From Fibrobacteria bacterium (GTDB lineage: Bacteria; Fibrobacterota; Fibrobacteria; UBA11236): a stretch of DNA of 64,000 nt. A program made the position numbers and the translations under genes. Every line of letters starts with the position of its first letter. Positions within the stretch are counted from its first letter, which is position 1. The notes beneath the pieces were generated by a model that did no database searches, was not told the DNA's origin, and saw only the letters and a list, made by a program, of their open reading frames with translations. Below, piece after piece: positions 39,585-55,671 of this stretch. The stretch spans positions 8,687 through 72,686 of the forward strand of contig JADGQO010000038.1 in NCBI GenBank assembly GCA_017881725.1. Direction: 5' to 3'.

Positions 39585-39585
39585 C

Positions 39586-40041
39586 ATGGCCCAGTATTGC
39601 ACTTTTTATCTGGATCGCCGCATCTTCGGATTGGACATCCTGCAAATCCAGGAGATCATCCATATCCCGGAAATCACTCCGGTTCCCAACTCGCCGTTTT
39701 TCGTGCAAGGGTTGGCCAACCTGCGTGGCCAAATCGTGGTGACGATCAATCTCCGGAATATTTTTGGATTGAAGCCCGCGCCCGACTCGGTGAACCCCGT
39801 GCATATCATCGTGCCGTTTGAGGGGGAAGCCCTGAGCCTCATCGCGGACCGGGCCGGGGACGTGCAGGACTTCGGCGAAGCGCCCATGGTGCCGCCGCCC
39901 AAAGCGTTTTCCGGGCCGGGATCGGAATTGATCAAAGGCATTTTCGAACTCAAGGATTCGCTGCTCCACATCATCGACCCGGAGCCCATTTTCGCGAATC
40001 GATTCGCATCGGAACCCAAGTTAACCCGGTCCATCCCTTAG
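39586..40041 (+). CDS. cheW: Chemotaxis coupling protein CheW
   Basis: [43 protein letters not shown]. Confidence 0.9.
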
Positions 40042-40049
40042 GAGCCATC

Positions 40050-41528
40050 ATGTCCAACGAAATCAAACGCAGCTCGAACGGCTTCCTGGCCAGGTTCAGC
40101 GATTCCAGGATCCACGTCAAACTCTTGACCTTGGTGATCCTGTTCCTCACCGCCTTCCTGGTATTCGCCGGACTGGCGTGGAACACCATCCGCATCGTGC
40201 AAATCCGCGGGCCGTATTACAACAACATCGTCCAAAGCAAGGACCTGATCGCGGACATCCTGCCGCCTCCGGAATATCTCATCGAAGCCTACCTGAACGT
40301 GCTGCAAATGGCCGACGAGACCGACAAGCAGAAGCTGACCGACCTGATCCAAAAAGGGAAATCCCTGCGCACGGACTATGAGACCCGGAAGGACTTCTGG
40401 CAGAACGATTTGAGCGACGGCAAGATCAAAAACACTTTGCTCGTCGACTCCTACCAACCGGGCATGGCTTTCCTGGATAAGCGCGACAAGGAATTCATCC
40501 CCCTGCTGCTGCAAGGCGATCGCGCCGGGGCGCAAAAACTGGCGCATGGATTCCTCAAGGAGAAATATGAACAGCATCGGCTGGCCATCGACAAGGTGGT
40601 GTCGCTTTCCAATGACAAATACCAGGCTGACGAAGGCGCGGCCAACGCCATCCTGCATAGCCGCACCTTCCTGATGTTCGGTTTCGCGGCGGGCATCGTG
40701 ATCTTCGTATCGCTGCTGTGCTGGTACATCATCAAGCTGATCACCGGAACGCTTTCGCAAATCTCCATGGGGCTGGAGGCGGCTTCCAAGCAGCTGACCA
40801 ATGTCAGCCAGCAAATGAGCACCAATGCGGAGGAGACCTCTTCCCAGGCCACGTTGGTGAGTTCGACGTCCCAGCAGGTGAATCAAAGCGTGCAAACCGT
40901 GGCGGTGGGCACGGAAGAGATGACGGCCAGCATCCGGGAAATATCCAAGAGCACGTCGGAATCCGTGCGCGTAGCGGACTCGGCCGTCCGGATGGCGGAG
41001 ATCACCAACGCCAACGTCACCAAGCTGGGGGACAGCAGCGAGGAAATCGGGAACATCATCAAGCTCATCACGTCCATCGCGGAACAGACCAACCTCCTGG
41101 CCCTGAACGCCGCCATCGAAGCGGCCCGCGCGGGGGAAGCGGGCAAGGGATTCGCCGTGGTCGCGAACGAAGTCAAGGAACTGGCGCGGGAGACCGCCAA
41201 GGCCACGGAGGACATCAGCAAGAAAATCGTGGCCATCCAGAACAATACCCAAGGGGCCATCTTGTCCATCACCCAGATTGGGAACATCATCAAGCAGATC
41301 AGCGAAATCCAGAACACCATCGCCAGCGCGGTGGAGGAACAGACCGTGACCACCAATGAAATCGCCAAGAATATTTCCGAGGCCGCGCGCGGCAGCGGTG
41401 AAATCGCCAGGAATATTTCCGGCGTGGCCGACGCGGCCCACAGCACGGCCAACGGCGCGGTGCAAACTCAAAAAGCCTCGGAAGAGTTGGCCAAGATGCT
41501 GGCGGATTTACAGCACGTGGTGGGCTAA
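40050..41528 (+). CDS. Methyl-accepting chemotaxis protein (two TMs, periplasmic helical sensor, no obvious HAMP)
   Basis: Conserved MCP signalling hairpin ([31 protein letters not shown]) and flanking methylation heptads. Confidence 0.85.
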
Positions 41529-41533
41529 CCGCC

Positions 41534-42628
41534 TTGCCCAGCAGGATTAAGGTCCTCATCGTCGACGACTCCCTGTTGGCGTGCCGGATTTTATCGGAAA
41601 CCGTTTCCCAGGACCCCGCCTTGGAAGTCTCCGGGACGGCGGTGTCCGGCCCCATCGCCCTGGCCAAACTGACGCAAGGCCTTCCCGATATCGTCATGCT
41701 GGATGTGGAAATGCCCGGCATGGACGGCCTGCAAGTCCTGGGGGAGATCAAGAAGGCCTACCCCAAACTGCCGGTAATCATGTGCAGCGGGCTGACCAAG
41801 CTGGGCAACCGCGTGACCATGCAGGCGCTGATGGGAGGCGCGTCCGACTACATCACCAAGCCCGAAGGTAACATGAAAGTTACGGGGGATGGCCACGCCT
41901 TTTCCCGGGAGTTGTCCCAGAAAATCAAGGCCTTGTGCGCGCCCCACTCCCCGCCCTGGACGCCGGTGGTAATGGATCCGGCGCCGGCGCCGCACCCGGG
42001 GGCGGCGGATCCCGACATATTGGCCATCGGCATTTCCACGGGCGGGCCCAACGCCCTGGCGGAATTCATCCCCCGGCTCCCGGCGGATTTTCCCGCGCCC
42101 ATCGTCATCGTGCAGCACATGCCGCCGCTGTTCACCAAGTCCTTGGCGGAATCCCTTTCCAAGAAATCGCTTATCGAAGTGCGCGAAGGCGTGGCGGGGG
42201 CGCGTCTGGAGCGGGGCACAATCTGGATCGCTCCCGGCGGATTCCACATGGAGGCGTTACGGCGAAAGGGCCAGGTGGAGATTGCCATCAGCGAAGGCCC
42301 GCCGGTGAACTCCTGCCGGCCTTCCGTGGATATCCTGTTCCAATCCGTGGCGGAAGCCTACGGCCCCAAGGTGTTGGCCGCGGTGCTCACGGGCATGGGC
42401 GCGGACGGGCTGACGGGATGCTCCCGGATCCGGAAAGCGGGCGGCCGGGTGTTCGTGCAGGACGAGGCCAGCAGCGTGGTCTGGGGCATGCCGGGAGCGG
42501 TGGCGAAAGCCGGCTTGGCGAACAAGGTCCTGCCGCTGAACGATATGGCGGCGGAAATCATTTCCTGTTTTTATAATCGGGAAAAAAACCAACCGGCTCC
42601 GGACTTCCGGACCCGCAAAAGCGATTGA
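41534..42628 (+). CDS. cheB: Chemotaxis methylesterase CheB (REC + CheB_methylest); TTG start
   Basis: IKVLIVDDS ... IVMLDVEMPGMDG ... ILAIGISTGGPNAL ... HMPPLFT ... GMGADG. Confidence 0.9.
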   Translation: MPSRIKVLIVDDSLLACRILSETVSQDPALEVSGTAVSGPIALAKLTQGLPDIVMLDVEMPGMDGLQVLGEIKKAYPKLPVIMCSGLTKLGNRVTMQALMGGASDYITKPEGNMKVTGDGHAFSRELSQKIKALCAPHSPPWTPVVMDPAPAPHPGAADPDILAIGISTGGPNALAEFIPRLPADFPAPIVIVQHMPPLFTKSLAESLSKKSLIEVREGVAGARLERGTIWIAPGGFHMEALRRKGQVEIAISEGPPVNSCRPSVDILFQSVAEAYGPKVLAAVLTGMGADGLTGCSRIRKAGGRVFVQDEASSVVWGMPGAVAKAGLANKVLPLNDMAAEIISCFYNREKNQPAPDFRTRKSD

Positions 42629-42641
42629 GGCGATCAACACC

Positions 42642-43463
42642 ATGGCTGTAAGTGAGTTCGATTTCCAATTCGTTTCCGTCCTCCTTAAAAAACGGCTCGG
42701 CATCCAATTGGAGAAGGACAAGGCCTATCTGGTGGAGTCCCGGTTGAGCCGCGTCGCGGAAAAATCGGGCATGGGATCGCTGGCCCAACTCTTCACCCAG
42801 CTCAAGTCGCTGCGGCCGCCCGAAGCCTTGGTCAACGAGGTGTTGGAGGCCATGACCACCAACGAGACCTATTTCTTCCGCGACTCGAGCAGCTTCGACG
42901 CGCTCAGGGACAAGGTATTTCCGGAATTGTTGGGAAAGAATAAAAACCAGAAGTCGCTCAACGTCTGGTCGGCGGCCTGTTCGACGGGACAGGAGCCCTA
43001 CAGCATCGCGATCACCTTGAGGGAGTGCCTTCCGCAGCAGGGCGATTGGAACATCCGCATCCTGGGCACCGACGTGGCGACGCAGGTATTGCAGCGGGCC
43101 CGCGACGGAGTTTACAACGGCGCGGAAACCGCCCGGGGCCTGACGCCGGGCCAATTGAGCCGGTATCTGGTTCCGGAGGGGGAAACCTGGAAGATACGTG
43201 ACGAAATCCGGAAAATGGTTTCCTTCCAACCGTTGAACCTGAATTCCGACTGGCCCTACCTGGCCAAAATGGACGTCATCTTCCTGCGCAATGTCCTGAT
43301 CTACATGGACGACGCCAACCGGAAAGCGATTTTCTCCCGCATCCATCAGCTCTTGAACAAGGACGGCTATTTGTTCCTGGGCGCGGCGGAAACCACCTAC
43401 AGCATTTCCGATCTGTTCCGCAGGGTGGAATGGGAAAAGGCCGGTTGTTTTAGACCCTTGTGA
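42642..43463 (+). CDS. cheR: Chemotaxis methyltransferase CheR
   Basis: TNETYFFRD, VWSAACSTGQEPYSIAI, IFLRNVLIYMD. Confidence 0.9.
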   Translation: MAVSEFDFQFVSVLLKKRLGIQLEKDKAYLVESRLSRVAEKSGMGSLAQLFTQLKSLRPPEALVNEVLEAMTTNETYFFRDSSSFDALRDKVFPELLGKNKNQKSLNVWSAACSTGQEPYSIAITLRECLPQQGDWNIRILGTDVATQVLQRARDGVYNGAETARGLTPGQLSRYLVPEGETWKIRDEIRKMVSFQPLNLNSDWPYLAKMDVIFLRNVLIYMDDANRKAIFSRIHQLLNKDGYLFLGAAETTYSISDLFRRVEWEKAGCFRPL

Positions 43464-43651
43464 AATCGGGTCCTTGTAAAACCGGGTTTGCCGGGCTGAA
43501 ATCGCGGACGGTTCGGCCCTTTTAGGGTTTTCAGGCCCGCACCTTCAAGGGGCGATGACAATCTCGCGCAAATGGACGGCGGACCACCTCACCTTCTCTG
43601 CCATAATGTCGCCGGAAACAACCGGCCGTCCGCTCCTCCATTAAATATAAT

Positions 43652-43667
43652 ATTAGCATATGCTAAT
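43652..43667. promoter_or_regulatory. Perfect 16-bp palindrome ATTAGCATATGCTAAT overlapping the predicted -10 region of the sqr-like gene; candidate operator
   Basis: ATTAGCAT/ATGCTAAT is exactly self-complementary. It sits 31 nt upstream of the ATG at 43699 (Shine-Dalgarno AAGGAGGG). Flanking TTAAAT and TAATGT read as -35/-10. Confidence 0.55.
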
Positions 43668-43698
43668 GTAGAGATTGAAAAGAGCAAGGAGGGCCGGC

Positions 43699-44910
43699 AT
43701 GGCAAAGACATTGGTGCTGGGCGGAAATTTCGCGGGATTGACGGCGGCTTTGGAACTATCGCGGCGCTTGGGACGGCGCACGGATCATCAGGTGACGGTG
43801 ATATCCCCGTCGGAACGCTTTCTCTACGTCCCATCCTTGATTTGGCTTCCCTTCGGCAAGCGCAAGCTGGAGGACATCACTTTTCCGGTGGCTCCCATGC
43901 TGGCGCGTAAAGGCGTGGCCTTCATCCGGGACCGGGCCGAAAGAATAGTGCCGGAGCGGAACGTGGTGCTTACGGCGGAGGGCGGTGAGATCGGATACGA
44001 TTACCTGATCGTCGCCACGGGCGCGGCCATGGATTTCGGGGGCTTCCCGGGATTTTCCGAGGGGCATGCCCAATGCATCGTGAGCCCGGATCAAGGCGCG
44101 AAGGCTTATCGGGCCTTCCAGGAGTTGGTGCGGAATCCCGGACCCGTGGTGGTCGGGGCCGTGCAAGGCGCGAGCTGCATGGGCGCGGCTTACGAGTACC
44201 TGTTCAATCTCGAGCGCGAGCTGCGTCGCCACGGCGTGCGCAAGCAGGTGGATCTCACTTGGATCACCCCGGAACCCTATCTGGGTCATTTTGGAATCGG
44301 CGGAATCCGCGGCGGTCAATGGATGCTGGAAAAGTTCTTCAAGCTGTACGGTATCCATTGGCATGTCAACGCGTCGCTCAAGGAAATCTCCGCCGATAAG
44401 ATTGTGCTGGACGACGGGCGGGCGCTGCCCTACCGCATGTCCATGTTGATGCCGCCTTTCCGCGGCGCCGATCCCGTGCGCAATTCCTCCGGCCTGGGTG
44501 ATGAGAAAGGGTTCATTCCCTGCGACGACGGTTATCGGCATGATCGTTTCGCCAACATCTATGCCGCCGGGCTCGCGGTGCAGGTCAAGCCTCCCTTCGC
44601 GAAATGCGCCGTTCCCTTCGGCGTGCCTAAGACGGGATACCCCAGCGACGTGCAGGGCAAAATCGTGGCCCAGAACATCGCCAACGCCATCACCGGAAAA
44701 TCGGAACGCAAGCGCAAGGCTTTTGGAAGGATTCCGGGCGTGTGCGTGATGGATGCGGGAGGCAAGGAGGTGTTGATCCTGACCGATCATTTGTTCAAGC
44801 CCCGCCGCTTCGAGCTCATGCTACCTAATATGTTGGGCAGCTTCGGCAAGCTGTTTTTGGAACGTTACATGCTCTTCAAGAACCGGCTGGGATGGGCTTT
44901 CCTGCCTTAA
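43699..44910 (+). CDS. sqr: FAD-dependent sulfide:quinone oxidoreductase-like flavoprotein (Sqr/FCSD family)
   Basis: MAKTLVLGGNFAGLTAA (dinucleotide-binding motif), central DYLIVATGA, and a conserved Cys region typical of SQR-like enzymes. Strong Shine-Dalgarno site. Confidence 0.65.
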   Translation: MAKTLVLGGNFAGLTAALELSRRLGRRTDHQVTVISPSERFLYVPSLIWLPFGKRKLEDITFPVAPMLARKGVAFIRDRAERIVPERNVVLTAEGGEIGYDYLIVATGAAMDFGGFPGFSEGHAQCIVSPDQGAKAYRAFQELVRNPGPVVVGAVQGASCMGAAYEYLFNLERELRRHGVRKQVDLTWITPEPYLGHFGIGGIRGGQWMLEKFFKLYGIHWHVNASLKEISADKIVLDDGRALPYRMSMLMPPFRGADPVRNSSGLGDEKGFIPCDDGYRHDRFANIYAAGLAVQVKPPFAKCAVPFGVPKTGYPSDVQGKIVAQNIANAITGKSERKRKAFGRIPGVCVMDAGGKEVLILTDHLFKPRRFELMLPNMLGSFGKLFLERYMLFKNRLGWAFLP

Positions 44911-44926
44911 TGGATTGGGAATCGGC

Positions 44927-45226
44927 TCAGCAGTAAATCTGCTGCAGGGCGACCACCAGGTTCAGCATGCGCTTGTCCTTGACCCGATAGAATACCTGGT
45001 TACCGGCCTTGCGCGTTTCCAGGATGCCTTTGTCGCGTAGCTTGGCCAGATGCTGGGAGACGTTGCTCTGCGAGGTTTGCAGGAACGTCTCCAATTCACC
45101 GACCGTTTTCTCCCCCGATCCGATATGGCAAACCGTAAGCAAGCGCATTTCATGGGCCAGGGCCTTGAGCGTCGCGCTGGCCTTGGCGGCTTCTTTAATC
45201 AGTGGATTTAAGCGCGGAGTTTTCAT
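44927..45226 (-). CDS. ArsR/SmtB-family regulator of the BigR/SqrR (persulfide-sensing) type
   Basis: wHTH (LKALAHEMRLLTVCHIGSGEKTVGELETFLQTSQSNVSQHLAKLRDKGILE). Only two Cys residues: Cys33 in helix alpha-2 and the C-terminal residue (..QQIYC), which is the BigR/SqrR pattern rather than the alpha-3 metal site. Its ATG overlaps the upstream UbiA-like stop as ATGA. Confidence 0.6.
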   Translation of the reverse strand: MKTPRLNPLIKEAAKASATLKALAHEMRLLTVCHIGSGEKTVGELETFLQTSQSNVSQHLAKLRDKGILETRKAGNQVFYRVKDKRMLNLVVALQQIYC

Positions 45227-46143
45227 GTGCTGTAAAACCATTTGCCCACGGCGTACGCGGGCAAAACCCACAGGGCGCCGCACAGGGCCTGCACCGGCGG
45301 CACTTGGTTGGCCAGCATGGCCAGTACGTCCACGAGCGGCACCAGGCGCAGCATCATGCCCACCATTTGCCCGGTATGTTTGGGACTGGGATCGGACGCC
45401 AGATTGCGCAACGGCACGCGCAGCAATATGGCCAAGCCCAACCAGGCCAAGGCCAGCAGGTTTCCTGCATGGAACCAGGCGAGCGCGGCCACGGACCATC
45501 CGATGAACCAAACGGCGGTTCCCAGCATGAAAAGGTAGGCGCGTTTTTTAGTGTTGCCGCCCACTTCGTCGCGGGCCAAATAGGTGACGATCGCGATATA
45601 GCCCCACAGTGAAAACAAGGCGAACCACAGGGGTTTCGGCAACGACTCCGGCGCGGGCCAGGCATTCCAAGCCAGCGAGATGCCCGTGGCCAGATTGAGC
45701 ATACGGCAAAGGCCCATGGCCGCGGGACCTAAGGCCGTGCCTTTGAGCAGGAAGTTATAGGCGAAGATGGCCAGGCACAGCGCCCCAGCGGGCAGCGATG
45801 ACAGGGGGTGCAGGACGCTCAGCAAAATCAGGCCCGCGGACATCATGCCCAGGCTCAGGGCCCACGCGCCTCGCAGGGTAATGGCCCCGGAGGGGATGGG
45901 CCGCCCCGGCCGCTCGCGCGCGTCCACGTCCTTATCGGCAACGTCGTTGAGCGCCATGCCCGCCATGATGAACAAACCCGCCGCCAGGATACCGGCTATG
46001 GGAGCGATAGGCGCGGCGGCGGCAGAAAACGTCGGAAGGTTCCCGGAGGCGGCGCAGCCGATCATATAACCGGCGTAGGCGTTGGACATGGAGCTGAACA
46101 CGGTCGGGATGCGGACCAGGGAGAGAAATGCTTTGCCGTTCAC
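45223..46143 (-). CDS. UbiA-family aromatic prenyltransferase (EboC-like)
   Basis: NDVADKDVDARERPGRPIPSG (first Asp-rich motif); 8-9 TMs. Confidence 0.8.
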   Translation of the reverse strand: MNGKAFLSLVRIPTVFSSMSNAYAGYMIGCAASGNLPTFSAAAAPIAPIAGILAAGLFIMAGMALNDVADKDVDARERPGRPIPSGAITLRGAWALSLGMMSAGLILLSVLHPLSSLPAGALCLAIFAYNFLLKGTALGPAAMGLCRMLNLATGISLAWNAWPAPESLPKPLWFALFSLWGYIAIVTYLARDEVGGNTKKRAYLFMLGTAVWFIGWSVAALAWFHAGNLLALAWLGLAILLRVPLRNLASDPSPKHTGQMVGMMLRLVPLVDVLAMLANQVPPVQALCGALWVLPAYAVGKWFYST

Positions 46144-46146
46144 GGA

Positions 46147-47538
46147 TTATCCTTCCAGCACATGGGCTTCGATGAGATCATGGACGGCTTCCATGGGTAA
46201 CTTTCCGGTTACGGCAGCCAGGCGTTCCCGGATTCCGGACGCGTCGGAAATCGCCAGCGGGGATTCCTCGGGATTTTCGGACGGCGTTCCGTGGCTGCCT
46301 TTCACCAATTCCGGCATCAGGGGTATCACGTCCATGTAATAACGGAAGCCCAGGATTTTCTTGAGCAAGGTGAAAGCCATTTTCAGTTTGACGGCTTTCT
46401 GTTTGGGATCGAGGAACAATTCCACGGGGTCATAGCCGGGCTTGCGATGGATGTCCACGCAGCGCGCGAAATCCGGCGCCAGGGCGTCATCGTCCCAATA
46501 ATAATAGGTGTACCAATTGTCCGGTTGCGCCATCAGGATAAGGTCCCCGCTGCGCTCATGCTTCAGGCCCGCCTTTTCAATGGCATCGCCGACAAGCACA
46601 GCGCGGGTTCCCGGCTCTTTGGCAAACAACGCCGCGACTTCGGGTACGCGTTTTTTGTCCTTCACATAGACATGGCAAATCTGGTGATCGGAAACGGCGA
46701 AAGCCGCGCTGGCCCCGGCGTCGAGCATTTCCCAGGTCAGGCTGCGGCGGATTTCCAAAAAGCCCGCCCGGCGCAAAATGCGGTTGGGGTGGGCGAAGCG
46801 GGTCACGCGCGAGATACCGTATTCCGAAACCACCAGCACGCGAACTTTTTTCCCCTGGAAATATTCGATCAAATCCCCGGCCACGCGATCGATGGCGGCG
46901 AGTTCGCCCTCCATTTCCGGCGCGCCCGGACCGAACTTTTGTAATCCATAATCCAGGTGGGGCAAATACACGAGGCTCAAGGTGGGCTTATGTTTTGCGT
47001 AAGTCCATTTCGCCGAGGCCGCGATCCATTCGGAGGATTTGATGCCGCTGGCCGGTCCCCAGAATTGGAAGAAGGGGAAAGGCCCCAAGTCCTTCACCAA
47101 ATCGTCGCGCAGCGATTGCGGATGCGTATACACGTCGAATATTTTCCGGCCGTCGGCGGGATATTGCGGACGCGGCGTCACGCTCCAATCCACGTCCGCG
47201 TACATGTTGTACCACCAAAACAACTTGGCGCACGTGAATCCCGGCTGTTCGCGCTTCAGTTTCTCGTAAACCTTCTCGCCCTGGATCAAGCCGTTGTTCT
47301 GCTTCCAGAAACCCACCTCGGCATGATCCTTGAAGTACCACCCGTTGCCCACCACGCCGTTCTCGCCCGGCCGCTTTCCGGTCAACATCACCGCCTGGCT
47401 TGTGCAGGTCACGGCCGGGAAGGGCTCGCGCAAGGGCGCGGATCCGTTCGCGTCCAGGAATTTTTTCAGCCGGGGCGTATGCGGCCCGATCAAGGATCGC
47501 GTCAGCCCCACGATGTTCAGGACCACGGTATCATGCAT
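46147..47538 (-). CDS. Alkaline-phosphatase-superfamily nucleotide pyrophosphatase/phosphodiesterase-type protein (EboF-like)
   Basis: FPAVTCTSQAVMLTGKRPGENGVVGNGWY (Thr-nucleophile region) plus distal metal-binding His/Asp blocks. Its start overlaps the upstream gene's stop by 8 nt. Confidence 0.8.
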   Translation of the reverse strand: MHDTVVLNIVGLTRSLIGPHTPRLKKFLDANGSAPLREPFPAVTCTSQAVMLTGKRPGENGVVGNGWYFKDHAEVGFWKQNNGLIQGEKVYEKLKREQPGFTCAKLFWWYNMYADVDWSVTPRPQYPADGRKIFDVYTHPQSLRDDLVKDLGPFPFFQFWGPASGIKSSEWIAASAKWTYAKHKPTLSLVYLPHLDYGLQKFGPGAPEMEGELAAIDRVAGDLIEYFQGKKVRVLVVSEYGISRVTRFAHPNRILRRAGFLEIRRSLTWEMLDAGASAAFAVSDHQICHVYVKDKKRVPEVAALFAKEPGTRAVLVGDAIEKAGLKHERSGDLILMAQPDNWYTYYYWDDDALAPDFARCVDIHRKPGYDPVELFLDPKQKAVKLKMAFTLLKKILGFRYYMDVIPLMPELVKGSHGTPSENPEESPLAISDASGIRERLAAVTGKLPMEAVHDLIEAHVLEG

Positions 47539-48844
47539 CGGAAAAAGTCCCTTCGGGTACTTGGTTGATCACGAAACGGATTTCCTCCGCCAGACAATGC
47601 GCCAGCGCGGCGTCGTCCTTGGGGCGCAAGGCTTCCGGCAGTACGGACCAGGTATAGGTCTCGACTTCGAAATGCCGGCACAGATCGTGCTTCAGGGCAT
47701 GCCGCAGGGCGGCGATCATGTCCGCCTGGGTGGTTGAGAATCCGACCGGGGCGTCGGCGTGGATGGGCACATGATAATGCACGCGCCAGGGTTGTGACCA
47801 CAAATCCTGGTTATCGATTTCCAGCGCCTCGGGGAGATCGTCGAAACCCAAGGTTTTCCCGCCGACGGAGGAATGCAGGGAGTAACCTGCGCTTGCGGTA
47901 CTTGGGGGGCTTGCGGCGCGTGCGGCTTTGGCGGAGGGCTGATTGGGGTGGGGGAGGCGGCGGTGCAGGTTTTCATCCTGCGGAACCCAGACGCGGGTCT
48001 GATGCAGAAAGCGCGGCTCCACGAAGGACTGGCGTAACGCGCGGGTTACTCTATCCGGATCCGGTTGGAATTCCAGCGCGCTCGACAATTGCATTTTCAC
48101 GATGGGGATGCCCGCCGCCGCGAGCTTATCCAAGGCCCGGATGGGATCCTCGAATTGCACGGCCTGGTGGCAGGTGTCGTAGCAGAGTCCCACAAAGGCG
48201 TTGAGATCCGCGTCCGCCAGCCCGCGCGCGCGCGCAGTGGGCCGCAAGACCTCGTCCCAAAAAGCCACGACCTGATCGATGGTTTCCAACGCGCAGCCGG
48301 GCTCGGGTTCCAATCCCAGACGCAGGGTGCGGTTTTTTTTATCGGCCAACTCCCGGGCTCCGGCCACATAATCGCATAACGCCGATGCCGCACTGCGCGC
48401 ATGGTCCGGGGTCCAACCCGCGCGCCATCCCAAAGGCAAGGTGGAAACCGATCCGACTCCACCCTCGGGAAGCAAGGTCGCCAAGAGCCGGGCGCAAGCC
48501 AAGGTATACGCCAACCGCTCCGGGCGGGTCCAATCAGGATGATAGACTTTGGTTTTCACCACCGGGTCATGGAAGAATCCGTAGGGAAAAGCATTACACG
48601 TGAAGGCGCCCAATTGCGGTGGCGTCAGGACGGATTGCAGGCGGGCTTGGCCTCCATCCGCATCGCGGGACAAATCTTGCGCCAAGGAGGAGGGAAACCA
48701 TAAACCCAAGGTCAGGCGCGGCCAACCTAAATCCGACCGGACGGCGGATCCGAATCGCCGCATTAAATCATGCCAGGCGGTCCAATCCGATATGGGATGC
48801 ACATTGGTGCAATAGGTTAGATGGTTCAGGCCCAGGTTTTTCAA
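47531..48844 (-). CDS. Xylose-isomerase-like TIM-barrel protein (EboE-like)
   Basis: The N-terminal HLTYCTNVHP block and overall TIM-barrel character are those I associate with EboE; the context (UbiA, AP-family and DHQS-like neighbours) supports it. Only a TTG start is available at 48844. Confidence 0.5.
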   Translation of the reverse strand: MKNLGLNHLTYCTNVHPISDWTAWHDLMRRFGSAVRSDLGWPRLTLGLWFPSSLAQDLSRDADGGQARLQSVLTPPQLGAFTCNAFPYGFFHDPVVKTKVYHPDWTRPERLAYTLACARLLATLLPEGGVGSVSTLPLGWRAGWTPDHARSAASALCDYVAGARELADKKNRTLRLGLEPEPGCALETIDQVVAFWDEVLRPTARARGLADADLNAFVGLCYDTCHQAVQFEDPIRALDKLAAAGIPIVKMQLSSALEFQPDPDRVTRALRQSFVEPRFLHQTRVWVPQDENLHRRLPHPNQPSAKAARAASPPSTASAGYSLHSSVGGKTLGFDDLPEALEIDNQDLWSQPWRVHYHVPIHADAPVGFSTTQADMIAALRHALKHDLCRHFEVETYTWSVLPEALRPKDDAALAHCLAEEIRFVINQVPEGTFSDA

Positions 48845-49042
48845 CTTTTATAGACCTTTGATAACCTTTTATTGCCGTTTAGTAGGAAGTTCACCGGGCC
48901 CGGCAACTCCATAGTTTTGGCCTTTTTCCGGATAATCCCTGTCCCAAATTCAGGAGGGCGGAGTAGATTAAATTAGTAATCTGGTTGACTGGGGTTCGCC
49001 GTTCTTGCGGCGGGCCGGGGTTAGAGGGGAAGACATTTCCGT

Positions 49043-50200
49043 ATGCAGGAACAGCTGGCCGTAGCCCAGGAATCAATCGTCCGCAATTTGCGCACCATGC
49101 GCACCTTGATATCGCCCCTGAAAGGGGAAATGCCCATCCATTGCGGACCGGGCGCCATCGGCCGCTTGCCGCAATTGCTTCTCGACTTGAAGCCGGACCG
49201 CATTTTCATCATCACCGATCAACGGGTGTTCGGATTGCATGGCCAAAACCTGTTGCAGCTCCTGGCGCCGCATTTCGCGCCGGAAATCCTGTTGTTGGCC
49301 GAAGGCGAGAACGAGAAAAAAATCTCCAATTTGGAATTCCTGTGCAATCAACTCTTTGAGCGCGGGCTGACCAAGTCCTCCGTCATCGTGAACTTCGGCG
49401 GCGGCGTGGTCTTGAACCTGGGCGGGCTGTCGGCGTCTTTGGTCTATCGCGGCGTGCGCTTCGTGCAAGTGCCCACCACCTTGATGGCGCAAAGCGACGT
49501 CATCGTTTCCAACAAACAAGGCATCAATTTCGCCGGGGGTAAGAACCGGCTGGGCGTTTATAATACGCCGGTCGCGGCCGTGGCGGATACCCATTTCATC
49601 CGCACCGAACCGGTCCGGCAATTGCGCGCCGCGGCGGTGGAATACTGCAAGAACGCCATCCTACTGGGCGGAAGGCATTACGCCGAGGCCGAGCGCTTTT
49701 TCGCCGCGCCGGCGGAAACGTATACCGATGAGCGCATCGAGATCTTGCTCGCGAACAGCCTGGAGCAAAAATTCGAAATCGCGCGCCTCGATCCCCTGGA
49801 AAAGTCGCTGGGCCTGATGCTGGAATACGGCCATACCGTGGGCCATGCCCTGGAATACCTGTCCCAGGGCCGCTTGCTGCATGGGGAAGCCGTGTATCAC
49901 GGCATGAACGTGGCGGGCCATCTGGCCTTGCACCTGGGTATCTTGCCGGTTACGGAGCTCAAGAAGCAAAGCTTGCTCCTTTCGCGTCTGCGCGGCATCC
50001 CGCCCATCCCCAAGGATATTTCCGTGGGCCAAATCCTTTCCAGCGTCCAGCGCGACAATAAGAAGACGGGCAAAGGCCTGGCCTTCATCCTGATGCGCGC
50101 CATCGGCGAAGTGAACCGCCATGAGTCAGGGGTCTTGACGCCCGTCTGCGATTTTCAGCTCAATCATGTGATGCACGAGTATTGGGATGCTCTGTTATAG
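49043..50200 (+). CDS. 3-Dehydroquinate-synthase-family sugar-phosphate cyclase (EboD-like)
   Basis: GGGVVLNLGGLSASLVYRGVRFVQVPTTLMAQSDVIVSNKQGIN ... YGHTVGHALE ... HGEAV. Confidence 0.8.
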   Translation: MQEQLAVAQESIVRNLRTMRTLISPLKGEMPIHCGPGAIGRLPQLLLDLKPDRIFIITDQRVFGLHGQNLLQLLAPHFAPEILLLAEGENEKKISNLEFLCNQLFERGLTKSSVIVNFGGGVVLNLGGLSASLVYRGVRFVQVPTTLMAQSDVIVSNKQGINFAGGKNRLGVYNTPVAAVADTHFIRTEPVRQLRAAAVEYCKNAILLGGRHYAEAERFFAAPAETYTDERIEILLANSLEQKFEIARLDPLEKSLGLMLEYGHTVGHALEYLSQGRLLHGEAVYHGMNVAGHLALHLGILPVTELKKQSLLLSRLRGIPPIPKDISVGQILSSVQRDNKKTGKGLAFILMRAIGEVNRHESGVLTPVCDFQLNHVMHEYWDALL

Positions 50201-51041
50201 CACGGGCTCTTTGCCCGATGCCGCCTCCGTTTCCGACATCATCGACCTGCTCGCGCCCACGCCCTTCCGGGGCGTGGAGTTCGTCCTTACGGCCGCCATG
50301 CTTCCTCATGCCGAAGACGCCGGGTATTGGAAAACCGTCCGGGAACAGTTCGCGGAAGCCGGACTCTGTGTCCGCAACGTGCATTTGGGTTCGCCCCACC
50401 TGTGCGGCCCGGAGGCCCACCGCCCCGGCCTCGCGACCTTGGACGACAAGGCGCGCGCCGAGAAATTCCGCGTGGCGGGAAAAGCTCTGCGCATCGCCGC
50501 TTGGCTGGGCAGCCCGCATCTCACCTTGACCACGGGTCTTCCCGACGCGGAAAGCCCGGATCCCACAGTAACCTCCATGTTACGCGCACGCCAAACCGAG
50601 GCCCTGCGCGGGGAACTGGCCCGGCTCGTGGCGGCCAAACCGCGCGGTCTCGATCTCCTCATCGAACAGGAACCGGAGCATGTGATCCGGGAAACCGCGC
50701 AGCTCATCGATTTGTGCGAGGAATTCCCCGGCGACGTATTCGCAAATTTCGACGTGGGCCACAGCCACGTGATGGGCGAGGACATTCCCGCCTGCATCCG
50801 GGCCTTGGGCCCGCGCCTGCGCAACGTCCACCTGGAGGACATCCGGGGCCGCGTGCACCGGCACCATCTGTTCGGGGACGGGGACATCGATTTCGACGCC
50901 GTCTTCCGTAGCTTGCAGGTTACGGGGTACCATGGCGATTACACTCCCGATCTGTATCCTTTCAAGGACGAGGCCCCGCGCGCGTTGGCCGCCTCGGAGG
51001 CTTTCCTGCGGCGGCACGGGGTCTTGACTCCGGCGTTGTGA
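50187..51041 (+). CDS. Sugar phosphate isomerase/epimerase (xylose-isomerase-like TIM barrel, AP_endonuc_2 family)
   Basis: LCYSTGSLPD ... GVEFVL ... NVHLG ... FDVGHSHV ... NVHLEDI. It overlaps the EboD-like stop by 14 nt. Confidence 0.75.
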   Translation: MLCYSTGSLPDAASVSDIIDLLAPTPFRGVEFVLTAAMLPHAEDAGYWKTVREQFAEAGLCVRNVHLGSPHLCGPEAHRPGLATLDDKARAEKFRVAGKALRIAAWLGSPHLTLTTGLPDAESPDPTVTSMLRARQTEALRGELARLVAAKPRGLDLLIEQEPEHVIRETAQLIDLCEEFPGDVFANFDVGHSHVMGEDIPACIRALGPRLRNVHLEDIRGRVHRHHLFGDGDIDFDAVFRSLQVTGYHGDYTPDLYPFKDEAPRALAASEAFLRRHGVLTPAL

Positions 51042-51158
51042 GGGGGAAGCAAGACGCTCGCGAATTTCCCGGGCCAATCCGTCGCTTCGGTCGGATGATT
51101 CCACCGGATCGGTCGGATTTGAAAATAACGCTTCCAATGTCTCCGCTTCAGTCGTCCT

Positions 51159-51683
51159 ATGGATATGAAAAAAATCCTGTCCGTAGCGGTATTGCTCATC
51201 CATGTCCTGGGCGTTTCCCCGGGGACTCACGCGATGCCGTTCATTTGGGTTGATCTGATGGGATCCAATGCGAACAATGGTCTTACCGCAGGGTTGAAGG
51301 TTAATGTGGATAAGGGGATTGCCTTGTCCGCAGAAATGCTCGGTTACACGAACTGCATAATTATGTGCGGAAACGAACCCGACTACAGGGAAACAAGCCA
51401 GTTTAATTTCTTACTTGGAAAACGATGGAATTATAATCTTATTAGTGTATTTGGAATGGCTGGACTCGGGAGAGTCGATGCGCGGAAACCGAACGGATTC
51501 TATGATGATGGGATAGATATAAAATACTATTCAAAAACAGTTTCGACGATCGGCATTCCATTTGAGCTTGGAGTTACCCTTTCAAAATTCATCGGGATCG
51601 GAGCGGTTTTCCACGCGAACCTCAACAATCAAGCGCCCACTTATGGACTGCTGATCGATTTTCCAATCGGATACATGAATTGA
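51159..51683 (+). CDS. Small secreted protein, unknown function, in an AT-rich islet
   Basis: Signal peptide MDMKKILSVAVLLIHVLGVSPGTHA; beta-rich composition. Local GC is clearly lower than the surroundings. Confidence 0.5.
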   Translation: MDMKKILSVAVLLIHVLGVSPGTHAMPFIWVDLMGSNANNGLTAGLKVNVDKGIALSAEMLGYTNCIIMCGNEPDYRETSQFNFLLGKRWNYNLISVFGMAGLGRVDARKPNGFYDDGIDIKYYSKTVSTIGIPFELGVTLSKFIGIGAVFHANLNNQAPTYGLLIDFPIGYMN

Positions 51684-51861
51684 GCGGATTCATTGGACAC
51701 GATTATGTCGGCACCGAGTGCGAGGGAACACCCCGATTGCGCCTCGACGAAAGTGAATTTGCGAGGAGATCCCGGTCTCGCCGCTTGGCAGGACTCATCC
51801 AAACCGGGCCGTCGCCCGCATGGAGGAATTTCGGGCCGATGTAAACGGAAGCGGAACGGGG

Positions 51862-51899
51862 ACGCCTACCGCGACCGCGGAGCCCGCGTCGATCCGCGC
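51862..51899. repeat. 38-nt dispersed repeat, copy B (see copy A at 7008-7045)
   Basis: acgcctaccgcgaccgcggagcccgcgtcgatccgcgc: 37/38 identical to copy A. Confidence 0.7.
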
Positions 51900-52103
51900 C
51901 GGTGGAGCTCACGCCGTGATTCCAACCTTGGTTGAAATCCGAGGCGACAAAGCGGACGAATCCGAGCCTCGGCACGCTTCATCACCGGATCCAGTAGTTT
52001 CGCCATATTTTGTCTTGCATTCGCATCGATAAACGTGTCCATTTGGTAAAGGTAAAAGGAAAAAATAATCATGGTTGGAGAGACGGCCATCGTATCCGTG
52101 CGC

Positions 52104-52841
52104 ATGCGGATTTTCATACTCGCGTTAGGAGTTGGTTTTTTCTCCAACCTCCAAGCCCAATGCATCGAAAGCAAAACTATTCTCTGCTATGCCGCCGATC
52201 TGAAAAGCGTCGACCTGGGCGTGTATTGGAAAGATGAAGCCGGAGTTCCATTTAAAAATATCGGCGCTTTGAAAAACCGCTTGGAAGCGCGCGGTGAGCG
52301 GCTATTGTTCGCGTGCAACGGCGGGATGTTCAAAAAGGATTTTTCGCCGCAGGGTTTGCTCGTCGAAAACGGGAAGGAACTTTCCCCCCTGGATACGGCT
52401 TCCGGCGAAGGCAACTTTTACCTCAAACCCAACGGGGTATTTATTCTCACGACCGACAACCAAGCGGAAGTCCTTCCCACCGAAAAGTTTCCCGACCGGA
52501 ATACCATCCGCTTCGCCACCCAATCTGGCCCGATGTTGCTCATCCAGGGGCGCATCAATTCCGCATTCGCAAAGAACTCAGTGAACTACAATATCCGGAA
52601 CGGCGTTTGCGTCGCGCCCAACGGAAACGTGGTTTTAGCCATCTCCAAAACCAAAGTGAACTTTTATGAATTCGCGGAGTATTTCCAAAGCGTCGGTTGC
52701 CAAGACGCGCTGTATCTGGATGGGTTCATCTCCAAGGCGTTTTGGCCCGAGAAAAATTGGGGGCAACTGGGGGGTGAACTTGGGCCGATCATCGGAGTCA
52801 CCGCTAAAAAAAGTTTGGGCGGCTTCGGGGAAGGACATTGA
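52104..52841 (+). CDS. Phosphodiester glycosidase-family protein (DUF2233, NAGPA uncovering-enzyme-like), secreted
   Basis: Signal peptide MRIFILALGVGFFSNLQAQC. FACNGGMF, ATQSGPMLL, NIRNGVCVAPNGN, CQDALYLDGFIS. Confidence 0.7.
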   Translation: MRIFILALGVGFFSNLQAQCIESKTILCYAADLKSVDLGVYWKDEAGVPFKNIGALKNRLEARGERLLFACNGGMFKKDFSPQGLLVENGKELSPLDTASGEGNFYLKPNGVFILTTDNQAEVLPTEKFPDRNTIRFATQSGPMLLIQGRINSAFAKNSVNYNIRNGVCVAPNGNVVLAISKTKVNFYEFAEYFQSVGCQDALYLDGFISKAFWPEKNWGQLGGELGPIIGVTAKKSLGGFGEGH

Positions 52842-52957: not shown

Positions 52958-54472
52958 ATGCCGAAGCTGCCTCCCAATTCCCGCTCCAAATCTCCATATA
53001 GCGGCGACGCCTCACTCTGCGGCAAAGCCTCCATCGCGCGGCGCACCCCCCTGGCATCGCTCGCCGCCCCGTGGACCTTCCGCCGGAGCTTGAATTTCCT
53101 TTCCGCAGTTCGCGGCCCTCTGCGGAACTTGGTCGTCCTTTTCGCCGTCCTATCAACCGCCGCCGGCCTAATCTCCTGCGGCACCCGCAGCGACAGCGGC
53201 CCCTTGCGCATCCTATGGGCCGAGTGGCGTCCCTCCGACGCGCTTCAAGAGTTGAGCAAGGTCTACACCGACAAAACTGGCGTGCGCGTGAAAGTGGTCA
53301 AGAAGGCCTGGGACGGGGCTTTCGGGGACGCGACTTTCGCCGAGTTCCGGAACCGCGCCGACAATTACGACATCATCATCGGGGACAGCCAGTGGATGGG
53401 CCTCGGAGCGGTGGGCCATCATTATCTGGAATTGACGGATTGGATGAAAGGCAACTTGGACACGGCCGCGTTGGAGCCCGCCGCCTTGAAATGGTATTGC
53501 GAATATCCCCAGGGCGCGCATCGCTACTACGCCGTTCCCTGCGAGGCCGACGCCATGTCCTGGGCCTACCGCAAGGATTTGTTCGAGGACCCCCGGCATC
53601 GATCCGGTTTCCAGGCTTTCCTACAACGCAAGGGGGTAACGCCGGAGTTTCCCCTGGCGCCTCCGAAAAGCTGGGAAGAGTTGCGCTGGATCGCCCTGTA
53701 TTTCAAAGAGGCCGTGCCCGGCATGGCGGGCCTGGTGATGCCGACTTCGCGCAATTACGACGCGGCCACCATGAGTTTCGAGGCCGTCATGTGGGCTTTC
53801 GGCGGGGACTTCGGCGATTACGCCACTCATAAAGTCACCATTGAATCGCCGCAAACGGTGCAGGCTTTGAAGTTCTTCACCTCCCTGATGGACGGCACCT
53901 CGCCGGGCGGACGCAACATGGGCTTCAACGAAGTGAACGCGGAATTCATGGCGGGCCGCGCGGCCATGGCCTACAACTTCATGGCTTTTTTCCCGGTGCT
54001 GGCTTCCCCGCGCGACAATCCCGACTTCTACAACAAAATCGGCTTCTTCAATTCCCCCGGGCATACCGACGCGCAAGGCGTGACGCGCCGCGCCGCAGCG
54101 CTGGGCGGGCAGGGCATGAGCGTCAACGCGCATATCAGCAAGGCCCGCCAAGCGCGCGCGCTGGATTTCCTGAAATGGTTTTCCACGCGCCAAACTCAAA
54201 CGGCCTGGGCCGCTAAGGGCGGTCTCACCTCGGATAAGGACATCTTGAACAGCCCGGCCTTCCGCAGCGCCGCGCCCTATAATCCGCAATTCAGCGAAGC
54301 CTTCCGCCTCATGCGGGATTTCTGGGCCGTGCCCGAATACGACGATCTGCTCAAGGTTTGCCAACGCGAATTCTGCGCCGCCTTCCAGGACGGGGCGGAT
54401 CCGGCGGCGGCGTTGCATGAGGTGCAAATCGAACACGAAGCCATCCTGGCCAAGCGCGGGAACCGGCCATGA
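52958..54472 (+). CDS. ABC transporter substrate-binding lipoprotein (SBP_bac_1, carbohydrate type)
   Basis: Lipoprotein signal LVVLFAVLSTAAGLISCG. SBP family-1 fold regions. The real start is probably the in-frame TTG at 53090, giving MNFLSAVRGPLRNLVVLFAVLSTAAGLISC. The stop overlaps the permease start as ATGA. Confidence 0.8.
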   Translation: MPKLPPNSRSKSPYSGDASLCGKASIARRTPLASLAAPWTFRRSLNFLSAVRGPLRNLVVLFAVLSTAAGLISCGTRSDSGPLRILWAEWRPSDALQELSKVYTDKTGVRVKVVKKAWDGAFGDATFAEFRNRADNYDIIIGDSQWMGLGAVGHHYLELTDWMKGNLDTAALEPAALKWYCEYPQGAHRYYAVPCEADAMSWAYRKDLFEDPRHRSGFQAFLQRKGVTPEFPLAPPKSWEELRWIALYFKEAVPGMAGLVMPTSRNYDAATMSFEAVMWAFGGDFGDYATHKVTIESPQTVQALKFFTSLMDGTSPGGRNMGFNEVNAEFMAGRAAMAYNFMAFFPVLASPRDNPDFYNKIGFFNSPGHTDAQGVTRRAAALGGQGMSVNAHISKARQARALDFLKWFSTRQTQTAWAAKGGLTSDKDILNSPAFRSAAPYNPQFSEAFRLMRDFWAVPEYDDLLKVCQREFCAAFQDGADPAAALHEVQIEHEAILAKRGNRP

Positions 54473-55671
54473 GCGGCGTTGGCGGTGGCGGCGGCGGGCC
54501 GAGGGACGGCGGGCAGCATGGAGAGGCCACCCCCGATGGCGCGCAGCGACCGCAGGGGGAAGCGAAGTCGGGCGGCGCGCATCGACCACAGGGCGCGGGC
54601 GCCAGCGGCGACGGAGCGGGGCACGGGCTGCCGCAGGGGCCACCCCAGGGGGGCGTGAACCCCGGGAGCGCGCATCGGCCGCACGGAGGAGACCCTCGGG
54701 GCGGAGGACCGCAGGGAGATGTGAACCCCGGAGGCTTGCATCGACTGCAGGGCGGCGTCCAGGGTAACCGCAATGTTACCCAGCGCGGCTGGATCCACGG
54801 CCTGGGCGATCGCGGCCTGCGCAACCTGTGCATCCTCCCGGTCCTGACCCTGCTCATCCTGTTCAACATCTTCCCGCTGCTGGCCTCCCTGGGCGTCTCC
54901 TTCGCGGACTTCAACCCCATTCTCGACGACGCGCCGCGTTTCACCGGCTTCGGCAATTACACCGGGCTGCTCAACGGCCCGCGCCAGGAAGTGTGGCAAT
55001 CCTTCGTCCGCACCGGCGCCCTGGTCCTGGCGACGGTGGGCCTGGAAACCCTGGTCGGATTCGGGGTAGCGTTGCTGTTACGTAGGCGCTTCCAGGGCCG
55101 CGGCCTGTTCACGGCCATCCTGCTCATCCCCATGATGTTGTCGCCGGCGGTGATGGGATCTTTCTGGCGCTATCTGTTCAACGCCGATTACGGCGTCATC
55201 AATTGGTTCCTGGACGTGCGCTGGGGCTGGGACGGCAACCAGGCGCGGGCCTTCCTGGCCGTGGTCATCGCCGAGGTCTGGATGTGGACGCCTTTCATGA
55301 TGTTGCTGTCGTTGGCGGGCCTTTCGAGCATTCCGGAAACACTTTACGAGGCCGCCGAGGTCGATCGCGCGGGCGCGTGGTTCCGCTTCCGGCACATCAC
55401 CTTGCCCCTGGCCGCGCCCATGGTGCTGCTTGGCGTGGTCTTCCGCGCCATGGACACCTTCCGACTTTTCGACGCGGCCATGGTCTTGAACGGCAATCTG
55501 GAAGGCCAGCCCACCACTTTCGTAAGCGTCCTGTTGCATGCCCGGGGTTTCGGCGGCAGCCGCTCTCTCGGCGAACCCACGGCCCTGGCCTATCTCCTGC
55601 TCATCGCCTCGCTGGCGCTCACCACCTTGGTCTTGCGTTACCTCGATCACGTTAAAGGCGCGCGGCTATGA
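54469..55671 (+). CDS. ABC sugar permease (MalF/UgpA-like) with a ~115-aa Gly/Pro/His/Gln-rich N-terminal extension
   Basis: The permease core has the EAA loop (EAAEVDRAGAWFRFRHITLP). The N-terminus has three imperfect repeats (GGAHRPQGAGASGDGAGHG / SAHRPHGGDPRGGGPQG / GLHRLQGGVQG), encoded by ~75-nt imperfect tandem DNA repeats at about 54560-54780. Confidence 0.75.
   Translation: MSGVGGGGGGPRDGGQHGEATPDGAQRPQGEAKSGGAHRPQGAGASGDGAGHGLPQGPPQGGVNPGSAHRPHGGDPRGGGPQGDVNPGGLHRLQGGVQGNRNVTQRGWIHGLGDRGLRNLCILPVLTLLILFNIFPLLASLGVSFADFNPILDDAPRFTGFGNYTGLLNGPRQEVWQSFVRTGALVLATVGLETLVGFGVALLLRRRFQGRGLFTAILLIPMMLSPAVMGSFWRYLFNADYGVINWFLDVRWGWDGNQARAFLAVVIAEVWMWTPFMMLLSLAGLSSIPETLYEAAEVDRAGAWFRFRHITLPLAAPMVLLGVVFRAMDTFRLFDAAMVLNGNLEGQPTTFVSVLLHARGFGGSRSLGEPTALAYLLLIASLALTTLVLRYLDHVKGARL

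Follow-up and report, generated by a model that had tools for sequence, protein, structure and literature searches.

In 2016, the ebo operon was described as a probable isoprenoid-cyclitol pathway, with known variants that lack eboA (the eboG type) or eboD (PMC5133447), and in 2018 it was tied to the export of a scytonemin precursor in Nostoc (PMC6282210). A preprint of May 2026 has since linked eboB, eboC, eboE and eboF to the biosynthesis of thallusin: single deletions of each of the four genes abolish thallusin in Stieleria, and EboC farnesylates hydroxylated quinolines (bioRxiv 10.64898/2026.05.21.724671). According to the same source, the ebo genes of Planctomycetota are scattered yet functional, and Actinomycetota use an inositol route that dispenses with EboD. 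Fibrobacterota is not among the 11 phyla listed there as having the four core genes, and the name is absent from the text and from one supplementary file of that preprint. Here, we describe a 64-kb stretch of a Fibrobacteria bacterium (assembly GCA_017881725.1, contig JADGQO010000038.1; the whole stretch is called the window below) in which ebo-type genes lie next to sqr, a sulfide:quinone oxidoreductase (SQR) gene, and a gene for a regulator of the SqrR/BigR type.

The region is probably a Fibrobacterota-type ebo biosynthetic cluster that abuts a separate, ordinary sqr-sqrR sulfide-response module. Judged by its sequence, the cluster is a new variant of ebo at the level of the phylum: it combines a cyclase with a predicted DOIS-type active site and a second TIM-barrel protein (TIM2) with EboE, EboF and EboC and has neither EboA nor EboB in the locus. 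A preliminary description of the window had instead read the same genes as an ebo-like metabolite-export set placed under reactive-sulfur control.

Gene content and conserved arrangement

Open reading frames (ORFs) were read in the window and compared with NCBIfam, Pfam and PDB entries. The five ebo-type ORFs named in the preliminary description are all present, and their junctions are tight (Table 1). The reading frames of EboE and EboF share 8 nt, a gap of 3 nt separates EboF from EboC, and, in the divergent operon, the cyclase and TIM2 genes have 14 nt in common. As in canonical ebo clusters (eboABCDEF; Bacteroidota, Cyanobacteria, Pseudomonas EDB and eustigmatophyte plastids), EboE, EboF and an EboC-type UbiA prenyltransferase are encoded in one operon, a sugar-phosphate cyclase would supply a C6 cyclitol, and the genes are compact and translationally coupled. 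Unlike them, the window locus lacks EboA and EboB, encodes a cyclase of the DOIS type and not EboD, has an extra TIM-barrel enzyme coupled to the cyclase, and is laid out as two divergent operons, an arrangement that is fixed across the sampled Fibrobacterota-type loci.

A synteny scan by EboE, with one genome per species, returned 80 loci. The best 33 (40-56% EboE identity) are nearly all from Fibrobacterota metagenome-assembled genomes (MAGs), with a few labelled Planctomycetota or Bifidobacteriales. The order TIM2<cyclase <> EboE>EboF is kept in 30 Fibrobacterota-type loci (28 full, 2 truncated), and the gene set is thus syntenic in related genomes. EboC follows EboF in 14 of these 30 loci (L001-L008, L010-L012, L018, L019 and L059) and was not found there in the other 16. 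A metagenome contig with a 47% identical cyclase also has the full five-gene layout. The gene set is far beyond chance, and its arrangement recurs in around 30 related loci. The divergent two-operon layout is the conserved Fibrobacterota form and no peculiarity of this genome. It had first been taken for an anomaly that fits no published ebo locus, but phylum-specific arrangements and variants without eboA or eboD were already in the literature (PMC5133447; bioRxiv 10.64898/2026.05.21.724671).

Four loci labelled 'uncultured Bifidobacteriales' or 'Bifidobacterium sp.' (L012, L025, L029 and L031) carry a Fibrobacterota-type locus with a 52-66% identical cyclase, and these labels are probably wrong. 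In L013-L017, L021, L023 and L025-L030, the order TIM2<cyclase <> EboE>EboF is kept, but EboF is not followed by EboC. In four loci of this EboC-less kind (L016, L025, L028 and L030), EboF is followed by a large protein of unknown function.

Table 1. Features of the ebo and sqr region, in window coordinates
Feature	Position	Strand	Basis or remark
Candidate operator, perfect 16-bp palindrome ATTAGCATATGCTAAT	43652..43667	.	~32 nt upstream of sqr ATG
SQR, type I-like sulfide:quinone oxidoreductase, sqr	43699..44910	+	A. ferrooxidans and Aquifex SQR structures, E ~1e-71
SqrR/BigR-type ArsR-family repressor, predicted dithiol persulfide sensor, 99 residues	44927..45226	-	Aligned sensing cysteines
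EboC-like UbiA-family membrane prenyltransferase	45223..46143	-	Best NCBIfam match NF035940 EboC; PF01040
EboF, alkaline-phosphatase-superfamily phosphodiesterase/pyrophosphatase (phosphodiesterase/NPP)	46147..47538	-	PF01663, E 2.7e-58
EboE, TIM-barrel family, TTG start	47531..48844	-	NF035939
Divergent ebo promoter region	48845..49042	.	AT-rich palindromic element AGATTAAATTAGTAATCT at 48965-48982
Sugar-phosphate cyclase, DHQ-synthase fold, predicted DOIS-type active site	49043..50200	+	Motif alignment
TIM2, xylose-isomerase-like TIM barrel, epimerase/isomerase/dehydratase type	50187..51041	+	PF01261, E 2.3e-25

EboE, EboF and EboC

The minus-strand genes form an ebo-type set, as the preliminary description had proposed. 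EboE, for which that description had named an ordinary xylose isomerase as the alternative, scores 382 bits on the curated NCBIfam model NF035939, well above its cutoff of 250. It aligns over its full length with EboE of Catenovulum (E 9e-70), save for a gap opposite residues ~286-325. The residues concerned form a window-specific, low-complexity insertion of ~39 residues, rich in Ala, Ser and Pro (~47864-47980), which is missing from canonical EboE. The NCBI record gives a 410-aa protein that starts 27 codons further downstream and leaves out 48764-48844. Since a TTG or GTG start and the N-terminal LTYCTNVH motif are kept in relatives, and the family model is matched from its first position, the 437-aa form that starts at the TTG at 48844 is probably the correct one.

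EboF is encoded directly after EboE and shares 45-56% identity with EboF from clusters of other phyla and 61-75% with its Fibrobacterota orthologues. EboC is the top prenyltransferase family match of the third protein, at 127 bits on NF035940 (cutoff 250), with 31-38% identity to canonical EboC. This model is narrow, as the bona fide EboC of the Catenovulum cluster also misses the cutoff, at 170 bits, so that the score neither confirms nor refutes the assignment. The translation shows the NDxxDxxxD motif and is 49-71% identical to the product of the gene after EboF in the 14 Fibrobacterota-type loci that have one.

On the minus strand at 45241-45265, within the last 15 eboC codons and just before the start codon of the regulator gene, a 10-bp GC-rich hairpin is followed by TGGTTTT. 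Terminator-like sites in the region are no commoner than in shuffled sequence, and promoter and terminator scans over 43400-51300 gave counts that were likewise not above those of shuffled sequence.

A cyclase with a predicted DOIS-type active site

The cyclase had been called EboD-like, a label that the family models do not bear out. It scores 140 bits on NF004852, the model of the EboD clade (DEI synthase), whose cutoff is 333 and on which the genuine EboD of Catenovulum reaches 536. Its best NCBIfam match is aroB (TIGR01357), at 233 bits. The ordinary aroB family, which had been set against EboD in the preliminary description, thus outscored the EboD model, yet both scores fall under their cutoffs (305 for aroB). 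The best PDB match is the 2-deoxy-scyllo-inosose synthase (DOIS) BtrC (2d2x, E 5.4e-44); among the PDB matches listed for a genuine EboD, DOIS ranks last.

The window protein, BtrC, two 3-dehydroquinate synthases (DHQS) and eight EboD proteins were placed in a joint alignment. In the catalytic segment, the window cyclase has GLMLEYGHTVGHALE and BtrC has GLIFEYGHTIGHAIE, versus IRAxLNxGHTFGHAIE in the two DHQS enzymes and SARPLDFGHWSAHKLE in the eight EboD proteins. The cyclase has the motif GLMLEYGHTVGHA where EboD has ARPLDFGHWSAHK. The cyclase and DOIS share a Glu at the position of DHQS Asn268, which we take to be Glu243 of BtrC, and a Gly at the position of DHQS Arg264, presumably the residue that binds the carboxylate of 3-deoxy-D-arabino-heptulosonate 7-phosphate (DAHP). 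Two further loops of the active site likewise agree, with KQ and DNK motifs in both proteins. The DOIS-type motif is kept in the window and in 29 related loci, one truncated locus being unreadable. AroB, i.e. 3-dehydroquinate synthase, was rejected as the identity of the protein on two grounds, the TIGR01357 score under cutoff and the replacement of Arg264 and Asn268 by Gly and Glu.

To judge from these residues, the protein is a deep-branching sugar-phosphate cyclase with a predicted DOIS-type active site; it appears to be neither a DOIS orthologue nor AroB, nor a member of the EboD/DEI-synthase clade. DOIS of aminoglycoside pathways, which converts glucose 6-phosphate to DOI, is its best solved relative and shares the active-site features described above, but the two proteins are only 31.5% identical, the context here is ebo, and no aminoglycoside genes, such as an aminotransferase or a dehydrogenase, lie nearby. 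The cyclase family is sharply bounded: identities are continuous down to ~43-47%, and the next proteins, at 38-39%, occur in a different context. The nearest cyclase outside the clade, at 39% identity (L087, 4234-8185), is encoded in a four-gene set with a pyridoxal-phosphate-dependent enzyme, a methyltransferase and a TIM barrel. This set suggests that the pair of cyclase and TIM barrel has been reused in another pathway.

TIM2 and three routes of ring supply

The nearest solved relatives of TIM2 are ketose and L-ribulose-5-phosphate 3-epimerases, and weaker matches were obtained with the inosose dehydratase IolE and hydroxypyruvate isomerase. TIM2 is also related to a TIM protein encoded in an ebo cluster of Hahella (27% identity, E 6e-25), with which it has an HxEDIRGRxHxH segment in common, and a homologous domain is fused to EboA in Actinomycetota, as reported previously (PMC5133447). 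The enzyme may act on an inosose by enolisation beside the ketone, with epimerisation, isomerisation or dehydration as possible outcomes.

When the 80 loci were tabulated, ring supply fell into three mutually exclusive classes. The first has a canonical EboD without TIM2 (8 loci). The second combines myo-inositol-phosphate synthase (MIPS), a TIM2 homologue and EboB (24 loci, mostly Actinomycetota), and a further 4 loci have TIM2 and EboB with no MIPS in range. The third, to which the window belongs, has the DOIS-type cyclase and TIM2 without EboB (28 loci and 2 truncated ones). TIM2 co-occurs only with clusters that lack EboD: it was found in 28 of the 30 loci with the DOIS-type cyclase, its homologue in 28 of the 29 loci that have EboB together with either MIPS or a TIM2-like protein, and in none of the 8 loci with canonical EboD. 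TIM2 was also considered as a replacement for EboB. This role was rejected, as 28 loci have both EboB and a TIM2 homologue.

A close parallel is the Actinomycetota-type ebo cluster (SCO3242-type: Ino1/MIPS, EboC, TIM-EboA fusion, EboB, EboE and EboF), which likewise has no canonical EboD, contains a TIM2 homologue and draws on another source of cyclitol. It differs in that myo-inositol-phosphate synthase takes the place of the DOIS-type cyclase, EboA and EboB are kept, and all the genes are co-directional.

Absence of EboA and EboB from the locus

EboA and EboB were sought with queries from the Catenovulum cluster and with hidden Markov models (HMMs) built from 15 and 40 sequences, respectively, run on six-frame translations at E<=10. 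Neither tblastn nor HMM searches matched EboA in the 64 kb of the window or in the 33 Fibrobacterota-type loci, and the same was true of the TatD-like hydrolase EboB; neither protein was detected within 10 kb in any Fibrobacterota-type locus. Their absence from the window, first noted in the preliminary description, is thereby confirmed. Among the loci of other phyla, 40 yielded EboB, nearly always immediately upstream of EboE.

These results bear on the nature of the product. Fibrobacterota might truly be devoid of EboA and EboB and make a prenylated cyclitol other than thallusin, with a ring of the DOI and not the DEI type, through a pathway of its own that has three enzymes in common with ebo. 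Such a pathway is possible, although we consider it rather unlikely. It is favoured by the failure of even the HMM searches in 33 loci, by the near-constant position of EboB in other phyla, by the different class of cyclase and by the place of Fibrobacterota outside the 11 phyla reported with the four core genes. The scattered but functional ebo genes of Planctomycetota speak against it, because they mean that the lack of eboB at the locus does not prove its lack in the genome. Moreover, the closest EboE proteins outside the Fibrobacterota-type loci, in MAGs labelled Planctomycetota (47-50% identity), stand alone, so that absence from a locus need not mean absence from the genome. Whether EboB is encoded elsewhere in the genome decides between a thallusin-like and a new product.

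The regulator, sqr and the candidate operator

The assignment of the regulator to the SqrR/BigR type and its coupling to eboC, both put forward in the preliminary description, stand. Among solved structures, SqrR is its best match (6o8l, E 6.5e-20), followed by BigR, HlyU and YgaV. Cys33 and Cys99 align with the pair of sensing cysteines in helices alpha2 and alpha5 of SqrR (6o8l) and BigR (3pqj). The BigR equivalog NF040642 is the top match, at 87.9 bits, under its cutoff of 155. The ATG of the regulator gene (45226-45224) and the TGA stop of eboC (45225-45223) share the sequence ATGA. The regulator gene and sqr are convergent, with 16 bp between them, and in the sqr product, the two redox cysteines (GASC..., ...VC...) align with those of the A. 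ferrooxidans and Aquifex enzymes. Neither gene shows signs of recent import, since the GC content at third codon positions (GC3) of both matches that of their neighbours.

The core operator of SqrR is ATTC-N8-GAAT (bioRxiv 10.64898/2026.05.15.721447). This canonical box does not occur in the window, but a TATAAT-like box upstream of sqr is closely followed by a palindrome of the same N8 geometry, ATTAGCATATGCTAAT. The 64 kb contain no other ATTA-N8-TAAT, and no further copy of the palindrome with up to 3 mismatches was found in the whole window. In L084, the same element, ATATTAGCATATACTAATGT, is kept upstream of an sqr whose product is 82% identical, with diverged flanks, and related ATTC/ATTA sites lie upstream of regulator genes in two other relatives. 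The palindrome is likely the operator of the SqrR/BigR-type repressor.

Three close homologues of the regulator were traced, and all are linked to sulfur genes. A homologue of 76% identity in L084 is convergent with that SQR gene and has no ebo gene upstream. Another, of 72% identity, heads an operon on another contig of the L007 MAG, with TauE, a persulfide dioxygenase (PDO)-rhodanese fusion, a YgaP-like protein and a rhodanese; a third, of 68% identity, precedes a CoA-disulfide-reductase-rhodanese (CoADR-rhodanese). No ArsR or SQR gene was found at the ebo locus of any relative, and none has an ArsR gene after eboC. The module resembles SqrR of Rhodobacter and BigR of Xylella, with their sqr or blh operons, in fold, in both sensing cysteines, in the sqr neighbour, in the N8 palindrome and in the operons of its homologues with PDO-rhodanese and TauE. 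It differs in the half-site (ATTA versus ATTC), in a score under the BigR equivalog cutoff, and in that the regulator gene lacks a separate upstream region, its start being merged with the stop codon of a biosynthetic gene to which it is unrelated. Given this overlap and the GC-rich, promoter-less sequence upstream of the regulator gene, the repressor is likely co-transcribed with the ebo operon in this genome. Co-transcription would couple the supply of repressor to ebo expression, and not ebo expression to sulfide.

The preliminary description drew the opposite conclusion, namely that an ebo metabolite-export module is under reactive-sulfur control. The repressor encoded by the last gene would then autoregulate the divergent ebo promoters and be released by persulfides. 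The ATGA overlap does place the regulator gene in the operon, ArsR-family repressors are commonly autoregulated, and the divergent promoter region contains the perfect palindrome AGATTA-N6-TAATCT. However, the core 14-mer of this element, ACTAAWTTAATCTA, is also found in 8 relatives without the regulator at ebo, exactly once in each and in the same intergenic position. The spacing of the element is N6 rather than the N8 of SqrR-type sites. The element at the ebo promoter was therefore rejected as a site of the regulator and appears to be a promoter or operator element of the cluster that is conserved in the lineage. The clade's candidate operator is found only at sqr, no relative has the regulator at ebo, and the export function itself is dated, superseded by the biosynthetic evidence for thallusin (bioRxiv 10.64898/2026.05.21.724671). 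Sulfur control of ebo is thus very unlikely.

Neighbouring genes

Immediately upstream of sqr, and in the same orientation, is a complete operon for chemotaxis (CheA with a CheW domain, CheW, MCP, CheB and CheR; 37161-43463). On the other side, 51159-52841, between TIM2 and genes for an ABC sugar transporter, encodes a 174-aa protein and a NAGPA phosphodiester glycosidase. The former has no family match and a hydrophobic, signal-peptide-like N-terminus. GC3 is 0.51 for the gene of the 174-aa protein and 0.64 for the NAGPA gene, versus ~0.75-0.84 for their neighbours. The pair looks like an insertion, as L018 and L059, two relatives, have the transporter right after TIM2. The first ABC permease ORF opens with ~100 residues rich in Gly, Pro and His (54469-54800), in a very GC-rich region (0.67). 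A wrongly called start or a disordered extension could account for this stretch, and no tandem DNA repeat was detected there. A search of the window and of the ebo region against Rfam found no riboswitch or other family.

That the cyclase and TIM2 are chance neighbours of EboE, EboF and EboC, either as the housekeeping AroB or as part of a sugar-utilisation operon with the downstream ABC transporter, is extremely improbable: aroB is the best NCBIfam match of the cyclase, and the window, L018 and L059 have the transporter after TIM2 in the same orientation (with its binding-protein gene farther off in L005), but the aroB score is under cutoff, the Arg for the DAHP carboxylate and Asn268 are replaced, adjacency to EboE holds in around 30 loci versus 4 for the transporter, and TIM2 homologues lie inside ebo clusters of other phyla.

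Proposed pathway and implications

We therefore favour a Fibrobacterota-type ebo cluster beside an independent sulfide-response module. In the pathway that we propose, the cyclase would convert a hexose 6-phosphate to 2-deoxy-inosose, and TIM2, translationally coupled to it, would catalyse an enolisation adjacent to the ketone of the inosose. EboE, EboF and EboC from the divergent operon would then process the cyclitol-derived intermediate and add an isoprenoid chain, so that the product may be a prenylated cyclitol-derived metabolite of the thallusin/ebo type. The cyclase and TIM2 would constitute a third entry to the pathway, beside canonical EboD and the actinobacterial route through inositol-phosphate synthase. 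At sqr, the repressor would bind ATTA-N8-TAAT in the promoter and be released by persulfides. Its gene seems to have lost a separate upstream region in this genome, and its start now lies inside the eboC stop codon.

Several observations weigh against this interpretation. The ATGA overlap physically ties the regulator to the ebo operon, and a weaker palindrome, ATTA-N6-TAAT, which is part of the perfect 6-N6-6 form, is present in the ebo promoter region. EboC scores under its NCBIfam cutoff, and 16 Fibrobacterota-type loci lack it after EboF. The identity of the cyclase to BtrC is no higher than its identity to the DHQS of H. pylori (32.3%); its DOIS assignment is based on active-site motifs and on the presumed functions of their residues. 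Finally, EboB, reported as essential for thallusin, is missing locally, which means that the product may differ or eboB may lie elsewhere, and the assignment to thallusin comes from an unreviewed preprint.

A bolder version would have the DOIS-type cyclase and TIM barrel of Fibrobacterota as an independently evolved third entry, EboA and EboB truly absent from the phylum, a new prenylated cyclitol signal that is not thallusin as the product, and ebo expression setting the repression of sqr through the co-transcribed repressor. Taken as a whole, this combination is doubtful. If true, the effect of ebo expression on sqr would be the reverse of the wiring first proposed for the window. The regulator is a warning that the target genes of a repressor cannot be read from an ATGA overlap with its neighbour.

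Few cryptic biosynthetic gene sets in bacteria are as widespread as ebo, and the recent preprint links it to thallusin, an algal morphogen active at picomolar levels. A phylum-wide exchange of the cyclase without a local EboB would be a natural experiment on which steps are core to the pathway and how the cyclitol ring enters it. It would also extend the possible producers to Fibrobacterota, a phylum missing from the list of the recent survey.

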